Of a DNA stretch of 24,000 bases, positions 5,603-21,042 are shown in pieces. The DNA is from Kitasatospora sp. NPDC051702 (GTDB taxonomy: Bacteria > Actinomycetota > Actinomycetes > Streptomycetales > Streptomycetaceae), in NCBI RefSeq assembly GCF_040681575.1, contig NZ_JBFAZB010000004.1, forward strand, positions 38,671 to 62,670, read 5' to 3'. The notes under the pieces are model-generated. The model did no database searches. It worked only from the letters and a program-made list of their open reading frames with translations, and was not told where the DNA came from. A program made the translations under genes and the position numbers. Every line of letters begins with the position of its first letter. Within the stretch, counting starts at the first letter, position 1.

Positions 5603-5904
5603 CCGCACAACCCCCTTCGTCCGCCCACCGCCCACCGCCTGCCGCCCGGGCGCAGCACGACACGCACGCACACCGGCCCCCCGTGGACGGGGTGGCCGGC
5701 GCGTGGCCGCAGGAGTGGATGCCGACGAGTCTGCGGCCGGCGCGCCCCCGGCGACAAGACACGATCCGCGTGCGCTGCGTCCTACCGAAACCCCCCGCGA
5801 CCTGCCAGGATGGGACCCGGCACCCTCCCGCCGCCCCCGCACCGCACCGCACCGCCCTGCGCCGCCTCACCACCCTCCCGCGGCCGCCGGTTCGCTTGCG
5901 AGTG

Positions 5905-6140
5905 ATCCGCGCACGTCCTTGCCGCGTAAAGAGGGTGAGGACATCCGAAGGCGATCGGAGCAGAGGAAAACCCGAGGGCCTGTAAAGCCGCTCGCCGAGA
6001 ACTCGGTCAAGTCTCAGCGATTCGCCCGTGAGTGGACGAAGGTCACCGTCTGACTCGAAACCACGGGGCTTCGATGCGGAGTGGACGCTTCTTGCCCCTG
6101 GCGGGAGATTGCGCCGTCTGCGAGGCAGAGTCTCGTCTTA
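5905..6140 (-). ncRNA. Presumed omega-RNA (reRNA) region at the tnpB 3' end and right end
   Basis: In characterised TnpB systems the guide RNA scaffold overlaps the 3' end of tnpB and runs to the right end of the element. This segment is lower in GC and has many short hairpins on the minus strand (TCGAA..TTCGA, CCGAGTTCTCGG, GTCCT..AGGAC) plus a duplicated GTCCACTC. The extent is not determinable here. Confidence 0.3.
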
Positions 6141-7402
6141 CGTCGGCTCGGCGATCCGTTTCCTGTCTCCGGGCCGCTCCCGGCGACGCGCCGCCCTATC
6201 ATCGCGGCAAGGTTGAGCGCGGCGTTCTCGTCCCGGTCGATGACCAGGCCGCAGCGCTCGCAGACGAACGTACGCACCCGAAGGGGCAGCTTGGATTTCA
6301 CTGCCTGGCAGCCGGAGCACGTCTTGGAGCTGGGAAACCACCGGTCGGCCACTTCCAGCTGGCCGCCGTTCCATGCGGTCTTGTAGGAGAGCTGACGGCG
6401 GATCTCGCCGAACCCCGCGTCGGCCACCGCGCGGGCGAGCCTGTGGTTCTTGAGCATTCCGGCGACGTTGAGGTCTTCGACCACGATGGTGCCGTACTCG
6501 CGGGCCAACTCTGTGGTGAGCTTGTGGATCGCGTCCCGTCGTAGTGCGGCTACGCGGTGGTGGACCCGGTTGCGAGCGTCGTTGGCCTTGAGCCAGCGTT
6601 TGGAGGGCCGCTGGCCGGCAATGCGGTCGGGTCCGACGCGGCGGGCGACGGTGCGGGACAACCGGGCGAGCTTCCTGCAGGCGGCGTCGTAGTGCTTGGG
6701 ATTCTCCATCGCGGGGCGGCCGTCGGAGAAGACGGCCAGGGTCCTGATTCCGAGGTCCACTCCGACCACCGCACCCGGACGGGACGGCTGATGGTTGCCC
6801 CGCTCGACCTCGACCGTGAAGGAAACGTGCCAGCGACCCGCGTACAGGCGCACCGTCGCGGACTTGAGCCTGGCGGTTCCGTTCGCGATGCGGCGATGCA
6901 GCTTGCGGGTGTTCTCGTGCGTCCTGAGGGTGCCGAGCACTGGCAGCGTGACGTGCCTGCGGTCGTCCTCCAGACGTATGGCTCCGGTCGTGAACCGGCA
7001 GGACTTCGCCGCCTTGTGCTTGGACTTGAAGTGAGGGAAACCCATCACAGGGCCTCTGCGTTTGCCCCTTCTCGAGTCGGACCAGTTCCTCAGGCCGGTG
7101 GCGAGCTGCTCCAGACCAGTGGCATACGCCTCCTTTGAGCACTCACGCCACCACGGTGCGGCGTCGTCCTTGGCCAGATTCCAGGCCTTGCGCATCGAGT
7201 ACATCGACCAGCCGAAGACCGGTGTCAGATCGTCCCCGGCGAGGCCGTATGACCGCTCTGCCTCTCGCTGGGAGAGGTTCGCCTTCACCTGCGCCAGGGC
7301 CCAGTTGAACGCCACGCGGGCCGCTCCGCAGTGCCGCAGAAGTTCGTGTGCCTGGCGCGGTGTCGGGTCGAGGGCGAATCGGTAGGCATGGGTGACGATC
7401 AC
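6014..7402 (-). CDS. tnpB: RNA-guided endonuclease TnpB (IS200/IS605 OrfB/InsQ family)
   Basis: Within ORF 6014..7624. I place the start at GTG 7402 (VIVTHAYRFALDPTPRQ, the typical N-terminal HTH). The RuvC-I motif is VVGVDLGIRT and RuvC-II is TIVVEDLNVAGM. The Zn finger is CSGCQ...CERCG and RuvC-III is IDRDENAALNL. Confidence 0.93.
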   Translation of the reverse strand: MIVTHAYRFALDPTPRQAHELLRHCGAARVAFNWALAQVKANLSQREAERSYGLAGDDLTPVFGWSMYSMRKAWNLAKDDAAPWWRECSKEAYATGLEQLATGLRNWSDSRRGKRRGPVMGFPHFKSKHKAAKSCRFTTGAIRLEDDRRHVTLPVLGTLRTHENTRKLHRRIANGTARLKSATVRLYAGRWHVSFTVEVERGNHQPSRPGAVVGVDLGIRTLAVFSDGRPAMENPKHYDAACRKLARLSRTVARRVGPDRIAGQRPSKRWLKANDARNRVHHRVAALRRDAIHKLTTELAREYGTIVVEDLNVAGMLKNHRLARAVADAGFGEIRRQLSYKTAWNGGQLEVADRWFPSSKTCSGCQAVKSKLPLRVRTFVCERCGLVIDRDENAALNLAAMIGRRVAGSGPETGNGSPSRRKTRLCLADGAISRQGQEASTPHRSPVVSSQTVTFVHSRANR

Positions 7403-7409
7403 GCGGCGC

Positions 7410-7442
7410 CCTCGCGGACGGCAGCTGCTGCCGTCCGCGAGG
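7410..7442. other. Perfect 15-bp-stem hairpin immediately 5' of the tnpB start
   Basis: CCTCGCGGACGGCAG (7410-7424), CTG, CTGCCGTCCGCGAGG (7428-7442) form an exact inverted repeat. On the minus strand its 3' arm contains the GAGGG that would act as the tnpB Shine-Dalgarno. A second palindrome, CCCGTACGGG, follows about 25 nt further into the element. Confidence 0.8.
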
Positions 7443-7735
7443 AGCGGCCGAGTGCGGTCCGCTTCCCGTACGGGCAGCCGCACACCGAGGTGAGCGTGTC
7501 GGTGATGTGGTTGCGGGTCGGGGCTCCGGCCGACTCGTTCTGATCGGGGACTGCGAGGCGTCGGCCCGTCACCTCCGGCACCACCGGGAGGTGTGCGGTG
7601 TCGAGCCTGACGAGAGACGGTCACGACGTTTCACGAGAACGACGATAGTGGCAGGGAGTCGACGACCATGACAGACCATCAGGCAGGGCGACCCTTGATG
7701 AACCGTCGGCTGCTGAGATCCCCCGCTCCGGCTGT

Positions 7736-7762
7736 GGCGGTTCGAATCCGCCCTCGCCCACC
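7736..7762 (+). other. Orphan tRNA 3'-end-like fragment (T-arm, acceptor strand, discriminator and CC)
   Basis: The sequence reads GGCGG-TTCGAAT-CCGCC (a canonical T stem-loop), then CTCGCCC, A, CC. A partial 5' acceptor strand GGGCGAC sits at 7686-7692 (6 of 7 pairs). However, no D-arm, no U8 and no anticodon stem can be folded between them. Confidence 0.55.
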
Positions 7763-8154: not shown

Positions 8155-8419
8155 CACCCGGGCCGCACCACCCGGGCCGCACCACCCGGGCCGCACGGCC
8201 CGGCACGCACGGCCCCGCGCGGCCCCGCACGGGTACGGACGGCCCCGCACGGGCCCTGCGGGGCTGCGTCCGCATGCCCGTCGACGCGCCGTCCGCGTCC
8301 CGTTCGCGTCCCGTTCGTGTCCCCGTCCCGCCCGCCGGGTACGGGGCACGGTCGCGTTCTGGCTACGATCGGTGAGCACGGGGCAAGGACGCGACCGGGA
8401 AGTTGGCGGGAGAAGACGG

Positions 8420-12439: not shown

Positions 12440-12778
12440 ATGTCGGAGCTTCGAGAGCACGCAGGCCGTCACTACGCCGTCCGGTTCCACTACGCCCTGC
12501 CGGACGACGCCTGGTGCGTGGAACTGAGCGAGGCCGTGCCCGCGCCGGCCTCGTGGGCCGGGATCCCCGGCGCCGAGACCCACCTGCCCGGGGCCGCCTT
12601 CCTGGTGGCCGTCATACCCGACGAGGATCCCGACCTGGAGCCGACGGTCCACGTGCACGGCCATGACGAGCACGTCATCCCGTACGAGGTCATGCGCTGG
12701 TTCATGGACCTGGTCGCCGAGCAGGTGGCCCGCTGCCGCACCGCACTGACGCAAGGCACTCCCGACCCGGTGCAATGA
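12440..12778 (+). CDS. Hypothetical protein
   Basis: 112-aa ORF with balanced, acidic, protein-like composition (HYAVRFHYALPDDAWCVEL...VIPYEVMRWFMDLVAEQV) and GC3 bias. I recognise no family. Confidence 0.55.
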   Translation: MSELREHAGRHYAVRFHYALPDDAWCVELSEAVPAPASWAGIPGAETHLPGAAFLVAVIPDEDPDLEPTVHVHGHDEHVIPYEVMRWFMDLVAEQVARCRTALTQGTPDPVQ

Positions 12779-12781
12779 TCC

Positions 12782-12850
12782 CGGCGTGACCGGCGTGACC
12801 GGCGTGACCGGCGTGACCGGCGTGACCGGTCTGACTGGTGCGACCGGCGA
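12782..12850. repeat. 9-bp tandem repeat: CGGCGTGAC in 5 perfect copies plus 2-3 degenerate units
   Basis: The perfect copies cover 12782-12826, followed by CGGTCTGAC, TGGTGCGAC and CGGCGAC... The repeat starts 4 nt after the stop at 12778. One plus-strand frame reads (GVT)5-GLT-GAT. Confidence 0.9.
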
Positions 12851-12987
12851 CGGCGGGGTCCGGGCCCGCGCCGAGCACGTCCCTCCCCGGCCTCCTCCCG
12901 GCCGGGGAGTGCGCCCCGGCAGCCGGCCGGCCGTGCACTGATCCCCTGGAAGGCCGATGACGGACGGCTCCAGGGCGGCGGGGGAGC

Positions 12988-13012
12988 GGGAAGTCGGCGG
13001 GGCCGACTTCCC
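12988..13012 (+). repeat. Palindromic element copy 1 (GGGAAGTCGGCGGGGCCGACTTCCC)
   Basis: Perfect 11-bp stem with a GGG loop. The 5' flank is CCAGGGCGGCGGGGGAGC and the 3' flank is GTGCCGC. It lies between convergent genes (stops at 12778 + and 13113 -). Confidence 0.9.
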
Positions 13013-13112
13013 GTGCCGCAGGTGTCGGCGGGCGGCTGGGCATCGAGCGAGTGGTGGTCCTGCCGGACCGGCAGCGGCCCCGGCCCCGGGGGAGTCGCCG
13101 GGTGAGGGGGCG

Positions 13113-13322
13113 TCAGGCCTGCTTCTCGGCCAGGGTGTGGGCGACCAGGGCGTTGGCGTGGCCGTGGCCGAGGCCGTGCTCGGACTTGAGCCAGGCGACG
13201 AGCTCCATGTGCTTGGTGAGCGGGGAGGTGCGGACGAGGTCCTGCCAGTAGGCGATCGGCCGGCCGTACTTCTTCTCGATCGAGGGGAAGTAGCTGGCGG
13301 GGCCCTTCACGGTGTTGGTCAT
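13113..13322 (-). CDS. DUF4287 domain-containing protein
   Basis: Within ORF 13113..13379, with the start at ATG 13322. The sequence is MTNTVKGPASYFPSIEKKYGRPIAYWQDLVRTSPLTKHMELVAWLKSEHGLGHGHANALVAHTLA. Confidence 0.75.
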   Translation of the reverse strand: MTNTVKGPASYFPSIEKKYGRPIAYWQDLVRTSPLTKHMELVAWLKSEHGLGHGHANALVAHTLAEKQA

Positions 13323-13510
13323 GATCAGATGGTCCCATCGGTGTCGAGCGAGAAGATCTCCGCGGTGGCGGCGTTCCACAGATAGGACCGGGACACCGAC
13401 CGGAACTCATCGCCCCCGCGGTGTGGCCTGAGTCACACCCGACCGGAGTCCGTACGGCCGGCCCCGGCGGCCTTGACCTCAAGGGCGCTTGAGCTCCTAC
13501 GGTCGGGTAC

Positions 13511-13921
13511 GTGATCTTCACCGAGACAGAACGCGCCTACCTCACCGCCCAGCCACTGGCCCGCCTGGCCACCACCGGCCCCGACGGCGGCCCCCAGGTC
13601 CGCCCGGTGGGCTTCCGCCTCAACGCCGACGGAACCATCGACATCGGCGGGCCCGCGATGGCCCGCAGCCGCAAGTACCGCAACGCCCAGGCCCGCCCCG
13701 AAGTCTCCGTCCTGGTGGACGACCTCGCCCCCGCCGACGACCCGGTCGCGCCCGGCTGGGGCCGCGGCGTCGAGATCCGGGGCCACGCCGAGACCCTCAC
13801 CGTCGACGTGCCCCCCGTGGCACCCGACCACTTCAGCCACGACATCCTGCGCATCCACCCTCGACGGGTCATCACCTGGAACCTTCAGGCCCGCGGCAGC
13901 ACCACCCGCACCGTCGACTGA
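13511..13921 (+). CDS. PPOX-class (pyridoxamine 5'-phosphate oxidase fold) probable F420-dependent oxidoreductase
   Basis: 136-aa ORF starting at GTG. It reads IFTETERAYLTAQPLARLATTGPDGGPQVRPVGF...IDIGG..M..S.KYRN...P.VSVLVDD...EIRGHAE. Confidence 0.8.
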   Translation: MIFTETERAYLTAQPLARLATTGPDGGPQVRPVGFRLNADGTIDIGGPAMARSRKYRNAQARPEVSVLVDDLAPADDPVAPGWGRGVEIRGHAETLTVDVPPVAPDHFSHDILRIHPRRVITWNLQARGSTTRTVD

Positions 13922-14011
13922 CCCGCGCGAGGACCGCGCGAGGACCGCCCCTTCAAGGCCTCGTCCCCGCACCGGCGCCGTCCGTCCGCACCGCTGCGTA
14001 GGGTGCGGGGC

Positions 14012-14625
14012 ATGACCGGGGCCTTCGACATCCACACCCGCCTGCCCGCAGCGCTGACCGACCGCGCCCAGACCGGGCGGTTCATCGCCGACTTCGCGGC
14101 CTCCTGGCACCAGCCCCTGCGGCCAGGGGACGGCTGGAGCGCCGAGCAGCTCGCGGCCTGCGAGCACCGCCTGGGCCTGGCCCTGCCGGCCGCCCTGCGC
14201 GAGACGTACCTGCTCCTGGGCCGGCGCAGCGACCTCACCGCCAACCACGACACACTGCTGCGCCCCGACGAGCTGCACGTCCTCGCCCCGGCACCGTGAT
14301 CCGCGCGGACCTCGCCGACACGACGCGCGAGCGGTGGGAGCCCTGGGAGCCGAGCCTGACCGTGGCCTGCATCGCCATGGTGATGACCGAGACGGTGCTG
14401 TTCGACGGCGGCTTCACCGACTTCCTGGAGGCCGATGCCGAGGAGACCGGCCTGACGCAGCGGTTGCGGGAACTCCCGGCCGTGGGACGCGGCGCGCGCT
14501 GGTTCGCCGACGACGACGTCCTGATCCGCGCACTCGACGGCCACGGCCTCAACGCCCGAGCCCGAACGCAGGCGGCTCTGGAACGGCTGCGCACCGCGGT
14601 GCCCGGAGACCGGCTCGACGGGTGA
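14012..14625 (+). pseudogene. SMI1/KNR4 (SUKH-1) family gene split into two overlapping ORFs by an internal out-of-frame lesion
   Basis: ORF 14003..14299 has the N-terminal half (GDGWSAEQLAACEHRLGLALPAALRETYLLLGRRSDLTANHDTLLRPDELHV). ORF 14296..14625 has the C-terminal half (RADLAD...ERWEPWEPSLTVACIAMVMTETVL...LRTAVPGDRLDG). The conserved middle segment expected between them seems to be missing, and the frames differ. The family assignment is from recall. Confidence 0.5.
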
Positions 14626-14652
14626 TCACGCTGCCCAGGGCCCCTCGGGAGT

Positions 14653-14677
14653 GGGAAGTCGACGGGGCCGACTTCCC
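14653..14677 (+). repeat. Palindromic element copy 2 (GGGAAGTCGACGGGGCCGACTTCCC)
   Basis: It has one stem mismatch (A at 14662). The 5' flank is CCAGGGCCCCTCGGGAGT and the 3' flank is GTGTCGC. It lies 28 nt after the stop at 14625. Confidence 0.9.
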
Positions 14678-14770
14678 GTGTCGCGTCGGCCGCGCCCCGG
14701 CCCGGCCGCCCGTCACCCGTTCGAGTCGTAGCGGCTGCGCCGCGCATCCGGGCTTTGTAGCGTCGGGCCC

Positions 14771-15454
14771 GTGAAGATCATTGCGAGCGCACGCGTGGCC
14801 GGCACCGCCGCCCTCGTCGGCGCGGTCCTGACGGCCGGCACCGGGACCGCGGTGGCCACCGGCGCCGTCGCGGCCACCTCGGTGCCCTTCTACGCCCAAC
14901 AGCTCAACAACGACTGCGAGGCGACGGCCCTGCGCATGGTCCTGGCCGCACGCGGCGTGAAGACCGACGACCAGGACGTCCTGGACAAGATCGGCGTCGA
15001 CTTCGAGCACCCCGAGTTCGGGCACTCCGGCCCGCGCTCCGGCGACCCGAACGTGGCCTTCGTCGGCGACCCGGACGGCTCCGAGGTCGACGGGACCGGC
15101 TTCGGCGTGTACGCCCCGCCGGTGGCGAACGCCGCCCGCGCCTACGGGCTCACCGTGGACCAGTCCGGTTCGGGCATCGCGGTCCAGACGCTCAAGGACG
15201 CCCTGGCGGCCGGGCACCCCGCCATCGTCTGGGTCGACTACCTGTGGCGCCACCTCAGGTCGACCACCTACACCGCCTACGACGACGTCAAGGTCCTGTA
15301 CGCCGGACCGGCCGAACACGCCGTCGTCGTCACCGGGTTCGGCAACGGGACGGTGTCGATCAACGACCCCGCCCGCGGCCGCACGACCGTCTCCGAGCGG
15401 GACTTCGAGAACGGCTACGCCACCTACGGCCGGATGGCCGTCGTCGTCGACTGA
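14771..15454 (+). CDS. Secreted C39-like (Peptidase_C39_2 / YvpB-BtrH-like) papain-fold cysteine peptidase
   Basis: 227-aa ORF starting at GTG. It has an N-terminal signal peptide (MKIIASARVAGTAALVGAVLTAGTGTAVA). YAQQLNNDCEATALRMVLA supplies the Gln and the nucleophile Cys. EHAVVVTGF...SINDP supplies the His and Asn/Asp. Confidence 0.75.
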   Translation: MKIIASARVAGTAALVGAVLTAGTGTAVATGAVAATSVPFYAQQLNNDCEATALRMVLAARGVKTDDQDVLDKIGVDFEHPEFGHSGPRSGDPNVAFVGDPDGSEVDGTGFGVYAPPVANAARAYGLTVDQSGSGIAVQTLKDALAAGHPAIVWVDYLWRHLRSTTYTAYDDVKVLYAGPAEHAVVVTGFGNGTVSINDPARGRTTVSERDFENGYATYGRMAVVVD

Positions 15455-15493
15455 CGAACGGCCCGGACTCCGGCCCGGAAACCCGGTTGACCT

Positions 15494-16043
15494 GTGGTGA
15501 ATGACGAGGGCGTGATCTCCGAGGAACGCGCCGTCGAGCTCGTCGAGTCGCTGTTGGCCGACGAGCGGCCGACATGGGCGGGGCCGCTCTCCGAGCCGGT
15601 CGTCTGCGAGATGGAGGAGCACGCGGTCGGCTGGCTCGTCCTCTGGAACTCGGCCCAGTACGCGCGCACCCGCGATCCGCGCGACAGCCTGGCCGGCAGC
15701 GGGCCGCTACCTGGTGGACCGGTACGACGGCAGCATCCACCACGTCCCGGCCACCGCGACGGGTGGGGACTGGGAGGAGCTCTACCTCCGGCAGCTCCGA
15801 GGGGCAACGCCGTCCGACCCGCTGGTCATCGCTCTCCAGGAGCTCCTGCGTTCCTCCGGACCGACAGCGGCCATGCGCCACCTCCGCCGCCAGGCACCGC
15901 TACTCGGACTGCAGGACGTCCGGGCGTTCGTGTCGGCGGTGTCGCGCGGGGTGCCGCCTTCGGACGCGCTGGTGCGCCTCACGTGGCAGCGTGAGGCCGG
16001 TTCGCTCCCGGACATCGAGACCCTCACCGGCCCGGCCGGTTGA
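15494..16043 (+). pseudogene. YrhB-like (immunity-protein-type) gene interrupted by a +1 frameshift
   Basis: ORF 15494..15994 is protein-like only up to ...HAVGWLVLWNSAQYARTRDPRDSLAGSGP. ORF 15714..16043 continues with (Y)LVDRYDGSIHHVPATATGGDWEELYL...AMRHLRRQAPLLGLQDVRAFVSAV. Removing one base in GGGCCGC (15701-15707) joins them as ...LAGSGRYLVDRYDG. The start is either 15494 or GTG 15512. Confidence 0.6.
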
Positions 16044-16154
16044 CGACCGCGGCGGGATGACAGCGCTTGCCGTGCGTCGATCGCGTGTGTCCCCGGTCGA
16101 GGCCGTGGCCGCACGGGCGGCATGACGACCGCCCGAAAGGTCCGTGCCGCGTAA

Positions 16155-16178
16155 CCGGCCCGGACGGATCCGGGCCGG
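16155..16178. terminator. Hairpin downstream of the YrhB-like gene
   Basis: CCGGCCCGGA (16155-16164) pairs exactly with TCCGGGCCGG (16169-16178) around the loop CGGA. Confidence 0.3.
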
Positions 16179-16329
16179 CCTCCCGCGCCGGCGCCGTGAG
16201 CAGAACACCAGGACCGCCATCGACGGGCTGTCCCCGCGAGTTCCGAAAGGTCGTCGCCTACCTCGACGGCCGGCTCCATCGCCGCTCACTACCGCCACCG
16301 GCAACACCATGAAGCACAAGGCGGGGAGC

Positions 16330-16354
16330 GGGAAGTCGGCGGGGCCGACTTCCC
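16330..16354 (+). repeat. Palindromic element copy 3 (GGGAAGTCGGCGGGGCCGACTTCCC)
   Basis: The 25 nt are identical to copy 1. The 5' flank is GGCGGGGAGC. It lies between convergent genes (stops at 16043 + and 16409 -). Confidence 0.9.
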
Positions 16355-16408
16355 CTGCGGGCAGGGGGACGCAAACAGCGGGGCCGAACGCCGCTGCTGT
16401 GCGAGCTC

Positions 16409-17179
16409 CTACCGTTCTGCCGACGGAAGGACGGGGGAGCAGGAGCGGCCCGCGTCCAGGGCCCGGCCGCAGAGCGAGCACCAGTCGAAGGGGGCGGTGG
16501 TGAGTGCGGGGACTGCGGCCCGCAGGGCGGATTCGGCTCGGTCGAGACCCGCGCCGTCCCGTGCGAAGCAGCGCACGATCCAGGTGTCACGGAGTGTCCG
16601 CGGCCTCCACCAGCTGTAGAGCTCCAGGTGGAAGGCCCACCTGCCGTCGAACCACCACGTGTCGGCGGGGCCGGTCGCCTCCGGTACGCGAGGTGGCAGG
16701 TGTTCCTCGGCGACGCGCGGGGCCACTCCGAGGCCGGTGGTGGTCCGCAGGACGAGGTGCGGCCACCGGTACACGCTCGCCAACAGGGCGTCGGCCTCCA
16801 GCCGCTGCTCGACGCTGCTGTTGAGCACCCTGTGCGCCAACCCCGGCACCGGTATCGCGGTGCGGCCGTCCGCGAGGACGTCCACCCGGACGGTCCCGGG
16901 GCCGTCGAGGATTCCGGGGAAGGCCCAGCCGTGGGACGTCCAGTGGGCGGACGGAACCCCGTCCAGACCGTACTCGTCGGGGTTGCCGCCCCGCGCTGAG
17001 TAGAACAGGCCGCCGTAGCGTTCCTCGAACCGGACCATCGCGTCCACGATCGAGGTCTCCGCGGGATGCTCGAAGCCGGCGTCGTCGACGGTCGTCGTCT
17101 CCTGCCTGATCCGGTCGGCAGACATCGGCGTATGCCGCCGTGCACGTGGCTCGAGGAAGCTGCGGAGCCGGGGCGACAC
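16409..17179 (-). CDS. Hypothetical protein (256 aa)
   Basis: Composition is protein-like and GC3 is high (checked codon by codon). The co-located ORF 16258..17454 is an R/P/S-rich shadow. Trp is frequent (WWFDGRWAFHLELYSWW) and the C-terminus has a Cys cluster (FDWCSLCGRALDAGRSC). The start is ambiguous between GTG 17179 and ATG 17125. Confidence 0.6.
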   Translation of the reverse strand: MSPRLRSFLEPRARRHTPMSADRIRQETTTVDDAGFEHPAETSIVDAMVRFEERYGGLFYSARGGNPDEYGLDGVPSAHWTSHGWAFPGILDGPGTVRVDVLADGRTAIPVPGLAHRVLNSSVEQRLEADALLASVYRWPHLVLRTTTGLGVAPRVAEEHLPPRVPEATGPADTWWFDGRWAFHLELYSWWRPRTLRDTWIVRCFARDGAGLDRAESALRAAVPALTTAPFDWCSLCGRALDAGRSCSPVLPSAER

Positions 17180-17261
17180 AGTGGGGTCGTCAAGAATGTG
17201 TATGCCGCACAGGGTACGCCGCCCACGCCCAGTGAGTCCGTGGAATCGGCCGTCCAGGAGT

Positions 17262-17286
17262 GGGAAGTCGGCGAGGACGACTTCCC
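17262..17286 (+). repeat. Palindromic element copy 4 (GGGAAGTCGGCGAGGACGACTTCCC)
   Basis: It has a 9-bp stem with a changed loop, GCGAGGA. The 5' flank is CCAGGAGT. It lies 27 nt downstream of the DUF397 stop (17313, -) and upstream of the 16409..17179 gene. Confidence 0.85.
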
Positions 17287-17312
17287 ACGTCGAGCACCGG
17301 GAGTTGTTCGGG

Positions 17313-17516
17313 CTACGCGTCGAACTCGCCCGCGCGGACGGCGGTGACGAAGGACTGCCAGGCGGAGGAGTGGAAGAGGAGGGCGGGGCCCTCGGGGTCC
17401 TTGGAGTCCCGGACGGGCATCACGCCGGGGAAGCCGTCGGCGACTTCGATGCACTGGCCGCCGCCACTGCTGTGCGAGCTCTTCCTCCAGCAGGCGCCAG
17501 TCAGTTCGACATCCAT
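17313..17516 (-). CDS. DUF397 domain protein (BldB-like)
   Basis: 67 aa reading WRKSSHSSGGGQCIEVA...VRDSKDPEGPALLF...W..F..AVRAGEF, the canonical DUF397 signature. Its start overlaps the stop of the upstream XRE gene by 16 nt. Confidence 0.9.
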   Translation of the reverse strand: MDVELTGACWRKSSHSSGGGQCIEVADGFPGVMPVRDSKDPEGPALLFHSSAWQSFVTAVRAGEFDA

Positions 17517-18340
17517 TCGAGCTTCCTCCGTACCGAGCGGATCATGGCGAGTGAGTCGGCCTGGTTCATGGCCTCGACCACAAGCCGATCGTAGCTCCTG
17601 TCCAACTCCCTGGTCAGCGGAGAATTCCGCTCGATGTATCCACGGTGCTCAGTTTCCAGATATGTAAGCATTTTTTGATTCGGCATGGTAAGAAGCGTCA
17701 CTGGACGAATGAACGGCCGGTTCTCGCCCAAGGAGAACGGGGCGATCTGGATGACGACGTTCGGCCGGGCGGCATACTCTGCGAGGTGGTTCAGCTGCTC
17801 CACCATGACCTCCTGGCCGCCGATGACGCGGCTGAGGCAGCTCTCGTCGAGTACCGCGTGCAGGAACGGTGGTGGTGTGCGGTCGAGGATCTGTTGCCGG
17901 GATACTCGGAACTGCACGCGTTCCTCGGCCTGTTCCGGAGTTGTGCTGCCTTGCCGCACATATCCGGCCTCGATTGCGGCCGCATAGGCTCGGGTCTGTA
18001 GAAGTCCGGGGATGACGCTGATCTCGAAGAGCTTGATCTGCTCCGCGCGCGTCTCGTAGTTGGCGTACTCCGGAAAGCCCTCCAACAACGCCGTGTGCTT
18101 GAGCTGCCAGTACATCAGGACCAGCGTGCCGCCGGTCTTCAGCTCCTGGTCGGCGAGTTCCGCCAGCTTCAGGCTCGGCGGCCGCTGCGCAAGTTCGACG
18201 TAGGAGAGGTGGGAGGCGGTGCAGTCCACCTTCTTCGACAGCTGGAGCTGGGTGAGCCCAGCGGCCTCTCGCGACCTGCGGAGTTGGACTCCGAAGGCAG
18301 CCCACGGGGATGACGTCGGGTCGATGGTCTTCTTGTTCAT
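17501..18340 (-). CDS. XRE-family HTH regulator with DUF5753-type C-terminal domain (WhiJ / Scr1-like)
   Basis: Within ORF 17501..18352, with the start at ATG 18340 (MNKKTIDP). The HTH is FGVQLRRSREAAGLTQLQLSKKVDCTASHLSYVE. The C-terminal part reads PGLLQTRAYA...LDESCL.R.IGG..VM.EQL..L. The gene is clearly lower in GC than its surroundings. Confidence 0.88.
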   Translation of the reverse strand: MNKKTIDPTSSPWAAFGVQLRRSREAAGLTQLQLSKKVDCTASHLSYVELAQRPPSLKLAELADQELKTGGTLVLMYWQLKHTALLEGFPEYANYETRAEQIKLFEISVIPGLLQTRAYAAAIEAGYVRQGSTTPEQAEERVQFRVSRQQILDRTPPPFLHAVLDESCLSRVIGGQEVMVEQLNHLAEYAARPNVVIQIAPFSLGENRPFIRPVTLLTMPNQKMLTYLETEHRGYIERNSPLTRELDRSYDRLVVEAMNQADSLAMIRSVRRKLEWMSN

Positions 18341-18380
18341 GGCAACCCCCAACTCGCGGCCGGCCCACCGGCAAGTCGCA

Positions 18381-18433
18381 TTTCACTTCCGATGCTAGGC
18401 GACCCAGGGCCACCATGTGCACGGAACGTGAAA
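18381..18433. promoter_or_regulatory. Inverted repeat in the divergent XRE / small-ORF control region
   Basis: TTTCACTTCCG (18381-18391) and CGGAACGTGAAA (18422-18433) are reverse complements apart from one inserted G. They are 30 nt apart and lie between the starts at 18340 (-) and 18460 (+). Confidence 0.4.
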
Positions 18434-18459
18434 GAACGATCGCGGAGGGTTCCGTCCTC

Positions 18460-18657
18460 ATGGCTCATGACCAAGCGCCCGAGCTCCACGGCTACGGGGT
18501 CCGGTGGGACCCCGAGGGGCGGTGCTACCGGGTGCGCAACGAGCGGGTGGGGGAGTGGCTGCGCCAACCCTCCGGGGAGCTCAGCGGGTTCACGTCCTTC
18601 GACGCGGCGTTCAGCGCGTGGCGGCAGTTCGAGCCGCCGCGCCCCCTGGGGGCGTGA
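18460..18657 (+). CDS. Small hypothetical protein (65 aa)
   Basis: Within ORF 18310..18657. ATG 18460 is preceded by GGAGGG (18444-18449). The sequence is MAHDQAPELHGYGVRWDPEGRCYRVRNERVGEWLRQPSGELSGFTSFDAAFSAWRQFE. Confidence 0.55.
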   Translation: MAHDQAPELHGYGVRWDPEGRCYRVRNERVGEWLRQPSGELSGFTSFDAAFSAWRQFEPPRPLGA

Positions 18658-18905
18658 TGGGATCCGCCCTGAACCGCGTGACCGCCGACCAGCGCCGCCA
18701 GGCCGCCGACGCCCTGGACGACCTGACCACCGTGCTCGCCCTGGGCGGGGTGACGCTGCCCTCCGTCGAGGTGGACTGGGAGTACGGGCACCGCACCGGC
18801 TGCTACCTGATCGGCCTCGGATCCGCCCGGGCGCCCGAGGTGCTGCGCATCGTCGACCTGCTCCGCAAGGGGCTGCGCTACGAGCGCCTGACGTATGACG
18901 ACTGA
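18657..18905 (+). CDS. Small hypothetical protein (82 aa), translationally coupled to the preceding ORF
   Basis: Within ORF 18504..18905. ATG 18657 overlaps the upstream TGA (the sequence is TGATG). The protein reads MGSALNRVTADQRRQAADALDDLTTVLALGGVTLPSVEVDWEYGHRTGCYLIGLG... Confidence 0.55.
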   Translation: MGSALNRVTADQRRQAADALDDLTTVLALGGVTLPSVEVDWEYGHRTGCYLIGLGSARAPEVLRIVDLLRKGLRYERLTYDD

Positions 18906-19139
18906 CGATCTCCTCGCCCTGAGGAAGGACCCCTGATACGCGATCCCCGTTGCTGACCGTGCCGGACGAGTGGGAGGGCACTACGGTGGCGGGGCAGGGC
19001 GGTGATGCGGTCGGTGGTGACGGTGCCGCCGTCGAGAACGAGGACGAGGACGGGGACGCGCGAGGACGAAACGGCACACGGGCGGCCCGGCGAGAAGGCC
19101 ACCTGCGACGTGATCGGGCCCCCACCGCGTTAGACAGAC

Positions 19140-19791: not shown

Positions 19792-21042
19792 ATGTCCCTT
19801 GACGCGCACGACGAACAGCTCGCCCGGATCCTCCGGGACGCGGCCGACCTGGCTCCGGACCCGCCCGGCGCGCTGCTGGCCGACGGCGCCGAGCGGCGCT
19901 GGCGCCGGGCCCGGCGCCGGAAGGCGGCGCTGGCCGGCAGCGCGGGCGTGGTGGCGCTGGCCGCCGTGGCCGCGGTGGCGCTGCGGCCCTGGGCGGCGCC
20001 GACCGACATCGCCCCCGCCGCGCCCGCCGGCGGCTGGCCCGAGCGGATCACCGCCGCGTTCATGGCGGACACCCTCACCGCGGTGCTGCCGCCCGGCCAG
20101 GTCACCGCCGCGGGCGGCAGCGGAAGCAACGACGGGCCGGTGCCGGGGCTGGCGCCGACGGCGCACCTGATCTACGACGACGGTCACGGCGCCGGGATGG
20201 TGACCCTGTCCGTGAACCGGGCCACCCTGCCGATCCGCGCCTCGACGTGGGGCACCGAGTGCCCCGACCCGGTCGAGGCGCCGACCGAGGCGTGCGAGCG
20301 GACGGTGCGCCCGGACGGCTCGATCGTGGTGGTCGCCAAGCTGAAGCCCGTCGAACCGATGAAGGTGCGCAAGTGGCAGGCGACCTACACCGGTGCGGAC
20401 GGCCGGCAGGTGCAGATCTGGGAGGTCAACTCGACCAGCTTCGGTCCGCCGCTGAGCCGTGAGGAGCCGCCGCTGAGCGCCGACCAGCTCGTCGCGGCCG
20501 CCACCAGCAGCGCCTGGGACCCGCTCTTCGCCCAGCCCGGCAGCCCCGGCACGAGCCCGGCCGGCGCCGCCCAGGGCCGGACGCCGGAGCCCCAGGGCCC
20601 CGAACCGGAGCGCATCCTCGCCACCGTGGCGGGCGCGCTGCCGGCCGGCACGCGCACCGACAGCGGCGCGGCGCAGCACGTCCCGGGCCGGGCGCACGTC
20701 TCGGTCACGCTGGAGGGGCGCACCAGCATGCTGTCCGTCTCCGTGACGCCGGGCCCGGACACGGACGGCGGCGGGCGCGCGGGCTTCGAGGCGGATGCCG
20801 AGCCGGGGGCGCTGTCGCACACCGCCGACGGGTCGAGCGTGCTGGTGCGCGAGAGCGGTGCGACGAAGTCGGGCGGCGGGCCGACGGTGCTGTGGAGCGT
20901 GGAGGTGCGGCAGGCCGACGGGACGCGGGTGCGGGTGTCGCAGTGGAACGGCGCCGACGAGACCCAGATGACGCCCGGAAAACCGGCCCTGACGACCGAT
21001 CAGCTCAAGGCCGTCGCCACCGCCCCCGGCTGGCGGCACTGA
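19792..21042 (+). CDS. Membrane-anchored protein downstream of the ECF sigma (possible anti-sigma / sensor) with a duplicated extracytoplasmic domain
   Basis: 416 aa. GAGGAAGCGGAG lies upstream of the ATG. A short cytoplasmic N-terminus is followed by RRWRRARRRK and one TM segment (AALAGSAGVVALAAVAAVAL). Two homologous modules follow, each starting PERI(T/L)A and ending L(S/T)xDQLxAxAT..W. Confidence 0.7.
   Translation: MSLDAHDEQLARILRDAADLAPDPPGALLADGAERRWRRARRRKAALAGSAGVVALAAVAAVALRPWAAPTDIAPAAPAGGWPERITAAFMADTLTAVLPPGQVTAAGGSGSNDGPVPGLAPTAHLIYDDGHGAGMVTLSVNRATLPIRASTWGTECPDPVEAPTEACERTVRPDGSIVVVAKLKPVEPMKVRKWQATYTGADGRQVQIWEVNSTSFGPPLSREEPPLSADQLVAAATSSAWDPLFAQPGSPGTSPAGAAQGRTPEPQGPEPERILATVAGALPAGTRTDSGAAQHVPGRAHVSVTLEGRTSMLSVSVTPGPDTDGGGRAGFEADAEPGALSHTADGSSVLVRESGATKSGGGPTVLWSVEVRQADGTRVRVSQWNGADETQMTPGKPALTTDQLKAVATAPGWRH

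Follow-up and report, generated by a model that had tools for sequence, protein, structure and literature searches.

The window analysed here is a 24,000-nucleotide stretch of Kitasatospora sp. NPDC051702 DNA (contig NZ_JBFAZB010000004.1, positions 38,671 to 62,670), in which a pattern search with GGGAAGTCGGCGGGGCCGACTTCCC located four sites, at positions 12988 (no mismatches), 14653 (one), 16330 (none) and 17262 (two). The start-to-start spacings of 1665, 1677 and 932 bp given by an earlier sequence-only reading of this DNA were correct. No match was obtained in 100 dinucleotide-preserving shuffles of the window; the four palindromes are real, and chance would be expected to produce none of them. 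The family's covariance model, made from 116 members, returned exactly four hits in the window (40-55 bits; next best 13 bits), in keeping with the statement that no other full copies occur in it.

The gene context was established from gene calls in near-identical genomes together with GC3 frame analysis, and matched the description of all four copies as lying at gene 3' ends, two of them between convergent genes. Copy 1 lies 209 nt after a 112-aa hypothetical gene (12441..12779, + strand; gene 3302-3640 of L119 at an offset of +9139, and GC3 frame), for which a Pfam search gave no match, and 101 nt after a DUF4287 gene (13114..13323, - strand; PF14117, E = 1.9e-28), whose 3' end faces the copy from the opposite side. 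Copy 2 is found 26 nt past the stop of the second half (14297..14626, + strand) of a split SUKH/SMI1-like gene, the first half of which occupies 14013-14300; the two halves are fused in strain L121 as one 234-aa gene, and a C39 peptidase gene starts 94 nt beyond the copy. Copy 3 also has convergent neighbours, following Imm35 by 286 nt and, by 54 nt, a 238-aa hypothetical gene (16409..17125, - strand, placed by the same two methods), likewise without a match in a Pfam search. Copy 4 follows the stop of a DUF397 gene (17313..17516, - strand; PF04149), the last of an XRE/DUF5753-DUF397 pair (XRE/DUF5753 gene at 17501-18352), by 26 nt and is 136 nt upstream of the start of the 238-aa gene. Genes between the copies run in both orientations.

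None of the copies was assigned a strand, and all four are predicted to fold on either strand, with energies of -23 to -34.5 kcal/mol. Copy 1 (12983..13017, core 12988-13012) and copy 3 (16325..16359, core 16330-16354) share the same 25-mer, an 11-bp stem without mismatches that is capped by a GGG loop. Copy 2 (14648..14682, core 14653-14677) has a single stem mismatch, A x C on the + strand and G.U on the - strand, whilst copy 4 (17257..17291, core 17262-17286) has a GAG loop and two substitutions in its apical part; its counterpart in L121 is the perfect consensus 25-mer. The G-rich + strand loops reported earlier were thus found as GGG, GGG, GGG and GAG. Covariance-model scores on the two strands were 51.7 and 55.5 bits for copy 1, 41.9 and 44.8 for copy 2, 41.4 and 48.5 for copy 3, and 44.2 and 40.6 for copy 4, and the first three fold at -34.5 (+ strand) and -29.9 (- strand), -24.7 and -23.4, and -27.3 and -23.3 kcal/mol, respectively. 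A U-tract is indeed lacking, and a terminator scan gave no hits at the four sites. The outer stems are atypically poor, with 2, 0, 1 and 2 of four pairs being Watson-Crick in copies 1-4 (copy 1, with outer flanks GGAGC / GTGCC, has a further G.U on the + strand only), compared with at least three of four in 88% of copies in the family. These poor outer stems count against the reading of the four sites as 3'-end hairpins that is preferred below.

Across the family, the unit is a hairpin of ~33-35 nt with a GC-rich stem of 16-17 bp, a 3-nt loop and no U-tract. It consists of an invariant-looking core, GGGAAGTCGGC-NNN-GCCGACTTCCC, the invariance of which in the 116-copy alignment is imposed by the search pattern, and of 4-5 outer pairs that are variable yet complementary. 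Outer pairs 5-8 in that alignment are ~90% paired, each with two to three alternative pair types (CG 52 / AU 48; UA 55 / CG 43; GC 92 / AU 13), and the covariation score was 0.195, against 0.03-0.06 in slid controls. Double Watson-Crick changes were also seen in the cores of non-ascertained copies (53 observed versus 35 expected), and core positions 4-9 were unchanged in 108-127 of 130 such copies. The hairpin therefore covaries across the family, which is subdivided into subfamilies with distinct outer stems and has as its commonest form a near-perfect 25-bp dyad with 12-bp arms. A GT[AG]G foot on the hairpin was looked for and is absent, with neither GTAG nor CGTC present.

The sequence-only reading had extended the unit to 45-60 nt on the basis of conserved flanks. 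Its 5' GGAG[C/T] is real, but belongs to the family's outer stem and is not a separate flank, being mirrored by a complementary 3' flank in 88% of the family, though not in the four window copies. The likeness in the farther flanks (CCAGG... and GTGYCGC..GTCGGC) is no greater than that among unrelated members, hence the unit is ~33-35 nt in length.

The same core was present at at least 115 loci in ~61 Kitasatospora-lineage assemblies (115 among at least 118 stretches listed), and more than 100 unrelated loci carry identical 25-35-mers. Within PLSDB the element was confined to replicons of the Kitasatospora lineage, and a search of viral contigs found none; the family is restricted to the genus. 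Many loci adjoin core genes, for instance a copy between nnr and alr, and most copies are singletons beside such genes. With the window left out, 33 copies were in convergent and 6 in divergent contexts, and in tandem contexts the copy was usually 4-40 nt past the upstream stop; these statistics derive from a crude GC3 gene caller, which placed 15 copies 'inside' ORFs that are themselves probably spurious. The family, like the window copies, is positioned at gene 3' ends. This scatter behind unrelated genes, core genes included, largely removes the proposed link to this particular island, but the local concentration is real. No copies occurred in 250 kb of arbitrarily sampled Kitasatospora-lineage DNA, whereas 130 extra copies were found in the 886 kb surrounding ascertained ones, 48% of them within 500 bp of an ascertained copy (13% expected). 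Clumps take two forms: clusters interleaved with genes, of which the window shows an example, and arrays in which up to 15-18 copies are densely packed. The arrays span ~2 kb with 10-18 hairpins, are built of units of ~70-125 bp with related spacers, and occupy convergent spacers too. Neighbouring copies follow no orientation rule elsewhere; they resemble each other slightly more than randomly paired copies do (p = 0.001), which suggests duplication or gene conversion on a local scale.

Copies are conserved at orthologous sites, with 72 of 78 in alignable orthologous DNA kept in the partner genome. One clean filled/empty orthologous site was identified (L081:3463, filled, versus L004), with neither terminal inverted repeats nor a target-site duplication. 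Between ~11.8 and 17.26 kb the window is variable, with content that differs between species, and two rearrangement breakpoints are a few to ~35 nt away from a palindrome. Homology to L129, a more distant genome, restarts 5 nt before copy 4 (block 17257-18905), whose palindrome follows a DUF397 gene in both genomes. In L121, a strain 95-97% identical, a 111-bp segment with copy 3 (window 16295-16405) is inverted beside a 582-bp deletion, the breakpoints lying 35-50 nt from the palindrome and not centred on it. Comparison of strains, a check suggested with the original observation, also gave a VNTR of 9 bp and a microhomology deletion of 40 bp, neither of them located at a palindrome. In three species a palindrome follows a HAD-hydrolase gene whose neighbours differ.

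We consider it fairly probable (about 0.62) that the four sites belong to an 'untagged' REP-like or TRIT-like family of 3'-end hairpins which is found throughout Kitasatospora and multiplies by local copying, and for which a role in RNA is inferred. Of the explanations first offered, two find support: that of a REP/BIME-like family, and that of a terminator-like element shared by gene 3' ends. The palindromes most likely mark transcript ends. Located a few to a few dozen nucleotides past stops, and often between convergent genes, they can be transcribed from either side, and the hairpin would then form a bidirectional 3'-end structure on the transcript. It may act as a U-tract-less ('I-shaped') or factor-assisted terminator or insulator, as a barrier to 3'-5' exonucleases, or as both. 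Since the AAGTCG middle is conserved as sequence, and not as structure alone, a protein probably recognises the core. Against this reading, hairpins without a U-tract terminate mycobacterial RNA polymerase poorly in vitro. Two features also sit uneasily with a terminator role: the invariant AAGTCGG core, which structure does not explain and a generic terminator does not need, and the strong clumping, with 2-kb arrays far beyond the needs of termination.

Similar RNA-level roles have been proposed for REPs, TRITs and stable U-lacking Streptomyces 3' ends, and by analogy may apply here. The 147 TRIT copies of Mycobacterium are palindromic, bidirectional, genus-restricted and at gene termini (Gardner et al. 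2011, PMC3152330). Both families are palindromic and bidirectional, belong to a high-GC actinobacterium, are dispersed in one genus as tens to hundreds of copies, are conserved in sequence and structure and tightly linked to gene termini without a canonical U-tract, and in both a binding factor is suspected from sequence conservation. They differ in sequence and genus; TRITs are commonest at about -8 with respect to the stop codon, overlapping coding sequence, whereas the position in Kitasatospora is +4 to +40 or beyond, and neither dense arrays in tandem nor marked clumping on the kb scale is described for TRITs in the parts of PMC3152330 consulted. Untagged REP-like stem-loops are known from M. 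tuberculosis, Deinococcus, Bordetella (Bor), Brucella and cyanobacteria (Di Nocera et al. 2013, PMC3733652; Petrillo et al. 2006, PMC1590033), and are likewise species- or genus-specific, lack terminal tags, and lie 3' of coding sequences, plausibly co-transcribed; the present family has a new sequence, is from a genus outside those surveys, clumps more strongly and forms arrays. In S. clavuligerus, of the same bacterial family, 353 of 1427 3' ends mapped by Term-seq were stable hairpins without a U-tract (HS-U-lack), read as I-shaped terminators or as processed ends of Rho-terminated transcripts (PMC8269248). These are comparably GC-rich (-23 kcal/mol or stronger), but heterogeneous in sequence and mapped at transcript ends, as opposed to one repeated sequence known from DNA.

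Alternatively, the copies could be selfish, non-autonomous REPIN- or MITE-like DNA moved in trans by a transposase present in one copy, for example a RAYT/Y1 HUH enzyme; they would serve the host in no way, and their 3'-end position would only reflect tolerated insertion. The dispersed identical 25-35-mers, the subfamilies, the clusters and arrays (as with BIMEs and REPtrons), the filled/empty site and a core suited to enzyme recognition favour this, and an IS605-family TnpB in the window shows that this IS family is present in these genomes. REP/BIMEs of E. coli and REPIN-RAYTs of Pseudomonas are also extragenic palindromes of 20-40 nt at gene 3' ends and in convergent spacers, with subfamilies, clusters and long vertical persistence; they have been proposed to act in stabilising mRNA, in termination and in supercoiling, and REPs have been suggested to evolve by gene conversion. 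However, the suggested look-up of a RAYT/Y1 transposase found none in the window, in ORFs bracketed by copies or beside arrays, the GT[AG]G foot is missing, the TnpB element's ends are unlike the palindrome, and the REP/RAYT surveys consulted make no mention of Actinobacteria. Compared with the E. coli and Pseudomonas systems, the stem is an almost perfect dyad with barely defined head/tail orientation, the array units have related spacers in place of BIME linker motifs, and the phylum is Actinomycetota. Given also the orthologous stability across species and the structure of the filled/empty site, this explanation is unlikely. Mobility is nevertheless compatible with a host function and not exclusive of it.

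Action at the DNA level appears less probable again: the dyad, or an extruded cruciform, would be a putative binding site for gyrase, a nucleoid-associated protein or a regulator, managing supercoiling or domain boundaries between convergent genes, much as E. coli BIMEs bind gyrase and IHF. Binding of IHF, Pol I and gyrase to REPs has been reported (PMC6006769). The conserved core positions 4-9, the 25-bp dyad form, enrichment between convergent genes, where positive supercoils accumulate, and arrays that would allow multivalent binding are consistent with this. The outer-stem positions, however, covary between arms, as expected of a hairpin and not of independently read half-sites; avoidance of divergent (promoter) regions makes a transcription regulator unlikely, and no candidate protein is known.

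The suggestion that the palindromes divide the region into cassettes, as recombination sites or hot spots at which blocks are gained, lost or inverted as units, integron-like or palindrome-mediated, is very improbable. It draws on the interspecies variability, the L129 and L121 rearrangements, the linkage of the HAD-hydrolase gene to its palindrome, and the presence of copies in this neighbourhood in four species despite a very low background density, and integron attC sites are similarly imperfect palindromes at 3' ends of small accessory genes along a variable stretch; yet searches around the copies found no integrase, recombinase or transposase, IntI, attI and Pc are absent, the element has no R''/L''-L'/R' boxes, extrahelical bases or other attC features, genes lie on both strands, and orientation is unstable even between close strains. 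The elements are dispersed genome-wide, most copies being singletons beside core genes and conserved at orthologous sites; the C39 peptidase gene is not carried along with them (no palindrome was found within 6 kb of its homologues in other species); the L121 breakpoints and the other indels are off the palindromes; and breakpoints would in any case be expected downstream of the terminator of a conserved gene. The palindromes do not bound mobile cassettes of genes, but may have a minor role as recombination hot spots.

The 3'-end hairpin family is best read as previously undescribed, a new sequence family of a kind already known. On this explanation, the window copies would do no more than end four neighbouring small transcription units of a variable region in a chromosome arm.

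A mismatch-tolerant search of the window recovered the 25-nt core of the palindrome at 12988, 14653, 16330 and 17262 (copies 1 to 4), with 0, 1, 0 and 2 mismatches respectively, whilst 100 dinucleotide-preserving shuffles returned no match. These are the positions at which the sequence-only reading had placed the element, and its spacings (1665, 1677 and 932 bp), its G-rich loops on the + strand and its details of each copy were likewise as described. A covariance model built from 116 relatives scored the four copies at 40-55 bits and the rest of the window at no more than 13 bits; there are therefore exactly four copies in the window, none degenerate, and the earlier statement that further full copies are missing from it holds. 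The whole 25-mer, including a minority GGG loop, is common to copies 1 and 3 and to copy 4 of L121, the contig of a strain 95-97% identical to the window.

The element is genus-wide in Kitasatospora. A scan for GGGAAGTCGNCNNNGNCGACTTCCC, with one genome per species, retrieved at least 118 stretches, and 115 of the 118 listed came from approximately 61 assemblies of Kitasatospora, or of ‘Streptomyces’ that group with Kitasatospora by phosphoglucomutase; the presence of the element at no fewer than 115 loci in this lineage contradicts the earlier suggestion that it is tied to one island. Three of the listed matches fell outside the lineage and look like chance. Up to six contigs matched per assembly and, among the matches listed, those on complete chromosomes include central positions. 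Searches of 72,556 plasmids found the element in three Kitasatospora-lineage replicons only, and none of 2.9 million viral contigs carried it. No Rfam 15 family matched anywhere in the window at E <= 1, and in the literature searched the sequence appeared in no relevant context, nor were REP-like repeats described for Kitasatospora or Streptomyces.

An alignment of 116 copies revealed that the palindrome exceeds 25 nt, in that the 4-5 flanking bases on each side vary between copies yet stay complementary, giving outer stems of the types GGAGT...ACTCC, GGAGC...GCTCC, GCGC...GCGC, GCGT...ACGC and GCAC...GTGC. Outer pairs 5-8 were approximately 90% paired, with two to three alternative pair types each, compared with 34-47% in slid controls, and the covariation score was 0.195 versus 0.03-0.06 in the same controls. 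Since the outer pairs are complementary and no consensus extends beyond them in this alignment, the unit is a hairpin of approximately 33-35 nt with a 16-17 bp stem, its commonest core having 12-bp arms around a single central base. The sequence-only reading had proposed a unit of roughly 45-60 nt, longer than a simple hairpin; it was right that the unit outgrows the 25-mer, but not about the length, as the extended flanks of the window copies are no closer to one another than to those of unrelated members. The 3' flanks of copies 1 to 4 read GTGCCGC, GTGTCGC, CTGCGGG and ACGTCGA, and the GGAGY-core-GTGC form also occurs outside the window, for example in a relative at L072:812. The outer stems of the window copies are poor, with 2, 0, 1 and 2 Watson-Crick pairs of four, where 102 of the 116 family copies have three or four, and their mismatches become G.U pairs on the + strand only. 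All six pairwise comparisons between window copies were better direct (28-33 of 35 positions) than inverted (24-26 of 35), and their mean similarity lies at about the 88th percentile of random family pairs. Hairpin energies range from -23 to -34.5 kcal/mol on either strand.

As the invariance of the core in the 116-copy alignment was forced by the search pattern, 130 further copies were examined, collected with up to five substitutions allowed from 886 kb around the copies matched by the original pattern; a reversed-sequence control gave two matches. Positions 4-9 (AAGTCG) were unchanged in 108-127 of the 130, substitutions clustered close to the loop and at the base of the stem, and 53 double Watson-Crick changes were seen where independent variation of the arms would give 35. 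This excess of double changes and the unchanged AAGTCG point to some selection for pairing and to clear conservation of the core as sequence.

The gene order of the window (GC content 73%; 99.7% identical to a contig of one Kitasatospora isolate and 95-98% to two others) was assembled from the gene calls of relatives, GC3 frame analysis and Pfam. An ArsR-like HTH gene and a glyoxalase are followed by a 112-aa gene (+) and copy 1; then a DUF4287 gene (-), a PNPOx-like gene (+), a SUKH-like gene split in two (+) and copy 2; a C39-like peptidase (+), Imm35 (+; 15513-16043) and copy 3; and a 238-aa gene (-), copy 4, a DUF397 gene (-) and an XRE/DUF5753 regulator (-). The halves of the SUKH-like gene, at 14013-14300 and 14297-14626, overlap and correspond in L121 (5150-5854) to a single 234-aa gene with a weak SMI1/KNR4 (SUKH-1) match, the split apparently being due to a frameshift in the window lineage. 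Together with Imm35 and the C39-like peptidase, this gene gives the stretch the look of an orphan immunity-gene neighbourhood. Other repeats and small rearrangements were also seen. Directly past the stop of the 112-aa gene (~12786-12845) is a 9-bp tandem repeat, GGCGTGACC, of about 6-7 units, which is collapsed to one unit in the related contigs L120 and L121 and is thus a strain-variable VNTR. A 40-bp segment present in both of these contigs is missing from the window at ~17219, in the interval that separates copy 4 from the 238-aa gene start, and the junction shows CCGCC microhomology. On the 3' side of a YCII gene, a GC-rich and apparently non-coding spacer at 8155-8330, which precedes the phosphoglucomutase gene, holds the short direct repeats CACCCGGGCCGCAC (three times), CGGCCCCGCACGGG-like (three times) and CGTCCCGTTCG (twice).

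A stop codon precedes each of the four copies: copies 1 and 3 have convergent genes on either side, and copies 2 and 4 stand in tandem contexts, 26 nt past the stop. The location at gene 3' ends given by the sequence-only reading was therefore correct. Outside the window, 33 copies were convergent, 41 tandem, 6 divergent and 15 ‘inside’ long ORFs, themselves probably spurious, all by the calls of a crude GC3 gene caller; tandem copies usually lay 4-40 nt past the upstream stop. These positions persist: between orthologous loci of the fetched set, 72 of 78 copies in alignable DNA had a copy at the matching place in the partner genome. Four of the six exceptions were inspected, and three were weak fuzzy matches within coding sequence. 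In the fourth, the related loci L081 and L004 share a convergent spacer in which one species has the palindrome and the other an unrelated GC-rich sequence; the spacer sequence is replaced, with no target-site duplication between filled and empty site. This speaks against a MITE-like element, as does the make-up of the unit, a hairpin only, without terminal inverted repeats around an internal sequence. A HAD-hydrolase gene is followed by the palindrome in three species despite differing neighbours, and a DUF397 gene is followed by it both in the window and in L129, a contig of a more distant genome. The element behaves as a lasting attachment to gene 3' ends. In the rearranged HAD module, a nucleotide-level comparison of breakpoints with palindromes met UTRs that had diverged. 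At L129:18765-19975 a unit made of a DUF397 gene plus the palindrome occurs twice, and the flanks at 18982 and at 19943 are identical; local copying can thus take in a gene along with its hairpin. In another relative (L130), a half-copy, CCGACTTCCTGTGCGC, at ~16205-16225 lies some 85 nt downstream of a full copy at 16101 and is probably a decayed second copy.

Copies of the family clump. Two or more were present in 54 of 115 eight-kb loci, extra copies lay within 500 bp of a copy matched by the original pattern in 48% of cases (13% expected), and copies were often 50-125 bp apart. None occurred in an arbitrary 250-kb sample of two Kitasatospora-lineage megaplasmids or in 36 kb around C39 homologues, whilst 65 kb syntenic with the window neighbourhood in three other species held four to five. 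The local concentration seen by the sequence-only reading is therefore real, but belongs to the family at large and not to this island. Gene-interleaved clusters like that of the window were found in relatives, for example at the loci L051, L064 and L010, and other loci had dense arrays outside coding sequence, each of 5 to 15-18 copies that have diverged, with a period of 70-125 bp and lengths of up to 1.9 kb (L118:68-1961, L117:2143-3740, L037:521-1276, L075:4192-4898, and in L060, L083, L094, L077 and L082). These arrays take up the spacers between convergent genes; their neighbours are ordinary genes, nnr and alr among them, and none of 10 flanking ORFs encodes a transposase or Cas protein. 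They are tandem arrays and not CRISPRs, given that the repeats are diverged, cas genes are lacking and the spacers are mutually related as parts of ~100-bp tandem units. Descent of the window copies from array-type units was rejected, since their flanks resembled those of array members and of singletons to the same degree (p = 0.34).

In so nearly perfect a dyad, only the loop gives the repeat an orientation. Neighbours within 300 bp had the same orientation in 29 cases and the opposite in 18, and those 0.3-5 kb apart in 19 and 12; neither ratio is significant, and L121 has copy 3 the other way round, so that neighbouring copies follow no orientation rule. Family-wide, neighbours 0.3-5 kb apart were slightly more alike than random pairs (28.4 versus 27.1 of 35 positions, p = 0.001), modest evidence that would fit local copying or gene conversion.

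Anchored on the conserved phosphoglucomutase, comparison with other species showed that gene content differs from one to the next between ~11.8 and 17.26 kb, which makes this stretch a variable region; the ortholog of the anchor gene lies ~0.5 Mb from an end of a complete chromosome of 8.86 Mb. A role of the palindromes as recombination hot spots is possible but minor. Homology with L129 restarts 5 nt before copy 4, though a break just past the terminator of a conserved operon is expected anyway. In L121, a 111-bp segment carrying copy 3 (16295-16405, against L121:6940-7050) is inverted beside a 582-bp deletion (15713-16294) that removes the 3' part of Imm35 with its downstream region and truncates the gene; the breakpoints, however, lie 35-50 nt away from the palindrome and show short microhomology only. 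Nor do the strain indels near copies 1 and 4, the 9-bp VNTR and the 40-bp microhomology deletion, fall at the palindrome.

The stronger proposal of the sequence-only reading, that the copies divide the accessory stretch into cassettes, fails on these off-palindrome breakpoints and on further grounds. A Pfam scan of 30 window ORFs found no integrase, genes lie on both strands between the copies, and C39 homologues of 71-80% identity have other surroundings, where no palindrome lies within 6 kb, so that this gene does not travel with the element. The palindromes are not a cassette system, and integron gene cassettes with attC sites are rejected on the same evidence.

The only mobile-element gene found in that Pfam scan is a solo IS605-family TnpB (6014-7624, -), 5 kb away, with OrfB_IS605, Cas12f1-like TNB and HTH domains. 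It is inserted between an FAD/cytokinin-dehydrogenase-like gene and the YCII gene, beside a lower-GC stretch at ~5890-6013; TnpB is absent from the same spot in L129 and in a further relative (L131), whilst L130 has one nearby in opposite orientation. A tie between it and the palindrome was rejected, as no Y1 TnpA adjoins the TnpB and its ends are unlike the palindrome. A Y1 (HUH) transposase was also lacking from the window, from 10 copy-bracketed ORFs and from 10 ORFs flanking dense arrays. Next to the TnpB, 43 nt at 7720-7762 contain a tRNA T-arm-like motif, GGTTCGAATCC, and are 95% identical to L130:6882-6924, which is likewise beside a TnpB; neither ARAGORN nor Rfam called a tRNA there, and the stretch may be a tRNA remnant or part of an IS end. 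A phage or plasmid origin of the window stretch was dismissed, there being no phage match and only scattered single-gene plasmid matches.

The REP-like and terminator-like options of the sequence-only reading fared better, the family fitting either untagged REP-like or TRIT-like hairpin repeats. With REP/REPIN-RAYT systems it shares a short palindrome (20-40 nt; here 33-35 nt) in many extragenic copies (here intergenic, at 115 loci or more). Unlike those systems, it has no GT[AG]G or CGTC at the hairpin foot, columns 1-4 of the alignment (A1) being without consensus; GTGG is internal only, in the GGAGT-GGG subtype, and outer stems are GGAGY, GCGC, GCGT or GCAC. A canonical intrinsic (Rho-independent) terminator was rejected, since the hairpin is not followed by a U-tract, as noted earlier, and a simple terminator scan of the window missed all four copies. 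With TRIT, the mycobacterial terminator motif, and I-shaped terminators it shares a stable GC-rich hairpin near stops, without a U-tract and predicted on both strands. The TRIT report (PMC3152330) describes 147 palindromic, bidirectional, genus-restricted copies at gene termini, the sequence conservation of which made its authors suspect a binding factor. By that same account, TRIT proper is restricted to Mycobacterium and placed at about -8 relative to the stop, making the present family an analogue and not a member. The family is apparently an undescribed untagged REP-like or TRIT-like hairpin repeat, a kind of element already known.

Its stability on either strand and its site at gene ends, together with precedents from TRIT, S. 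clavuligerus and REP elements, lead us to favour a role at the RNA level as a putative bidirectional 3'-end hairpin. In S. clavuligerus, Term-seq placed a quarter of mapped 3' ends at stable hairpins without U-tracts, which were interpreted either as I-shaped terminators or as the products of trimming after Rho termination (PMC8269248); mRNA stabilisation and binding of gyrase and IHF have been ascribed to REP and ‘untagged’ stem-loop families (PMC6006769, PMC3733652). The hairpin could terminate or insulate transcription, hold back exonucleases, or do both; some protein would read the conserved core; and copies may spread through duplication or gene conversion nearby, together with rare copying over longer distances. 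A bolder version, which we think improbable, is that a Kitasatospora-specific factor reads the AAGTCGG/CCGACTT core as RNA or ssDNA, making the hairpins factor-dependent bidirectional terminators and driving a RAYT-unrelated local copying into clusters and 2-kb arrays, the clumps becoming rearrangement hot spots in chromosome arms. Factor-dependent bidirectional termination is among the speculations on TRIT (PMC3152330).

For the window, these results remove the idea of a novel cassette system. The family itself is of moderate interest, owing to the phylum in which it occurs, the conserved sequence of its core, and the unusual way in which its copies clump and form arrays. REP-like families are well studied in Proteobacteria and, apart from mycobacterial TRIT, hardly described in Actinomycetota, and termination in high-GC actinomycetes, where most 3' ends are without U-tracts, is still poorly understood. 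The hairpin offers a handle for annotating the ends of transcription units in Kitasatospora, a genus with many biosynthetic gene clusters, and, as a candidate part, could supply an insulator or terminator when high-GC hosts are engineered. The family also provides a tractable case in which to ask whether a dedicated factor recognises such hairpins, and by what route they spread when no transposase is obvious.
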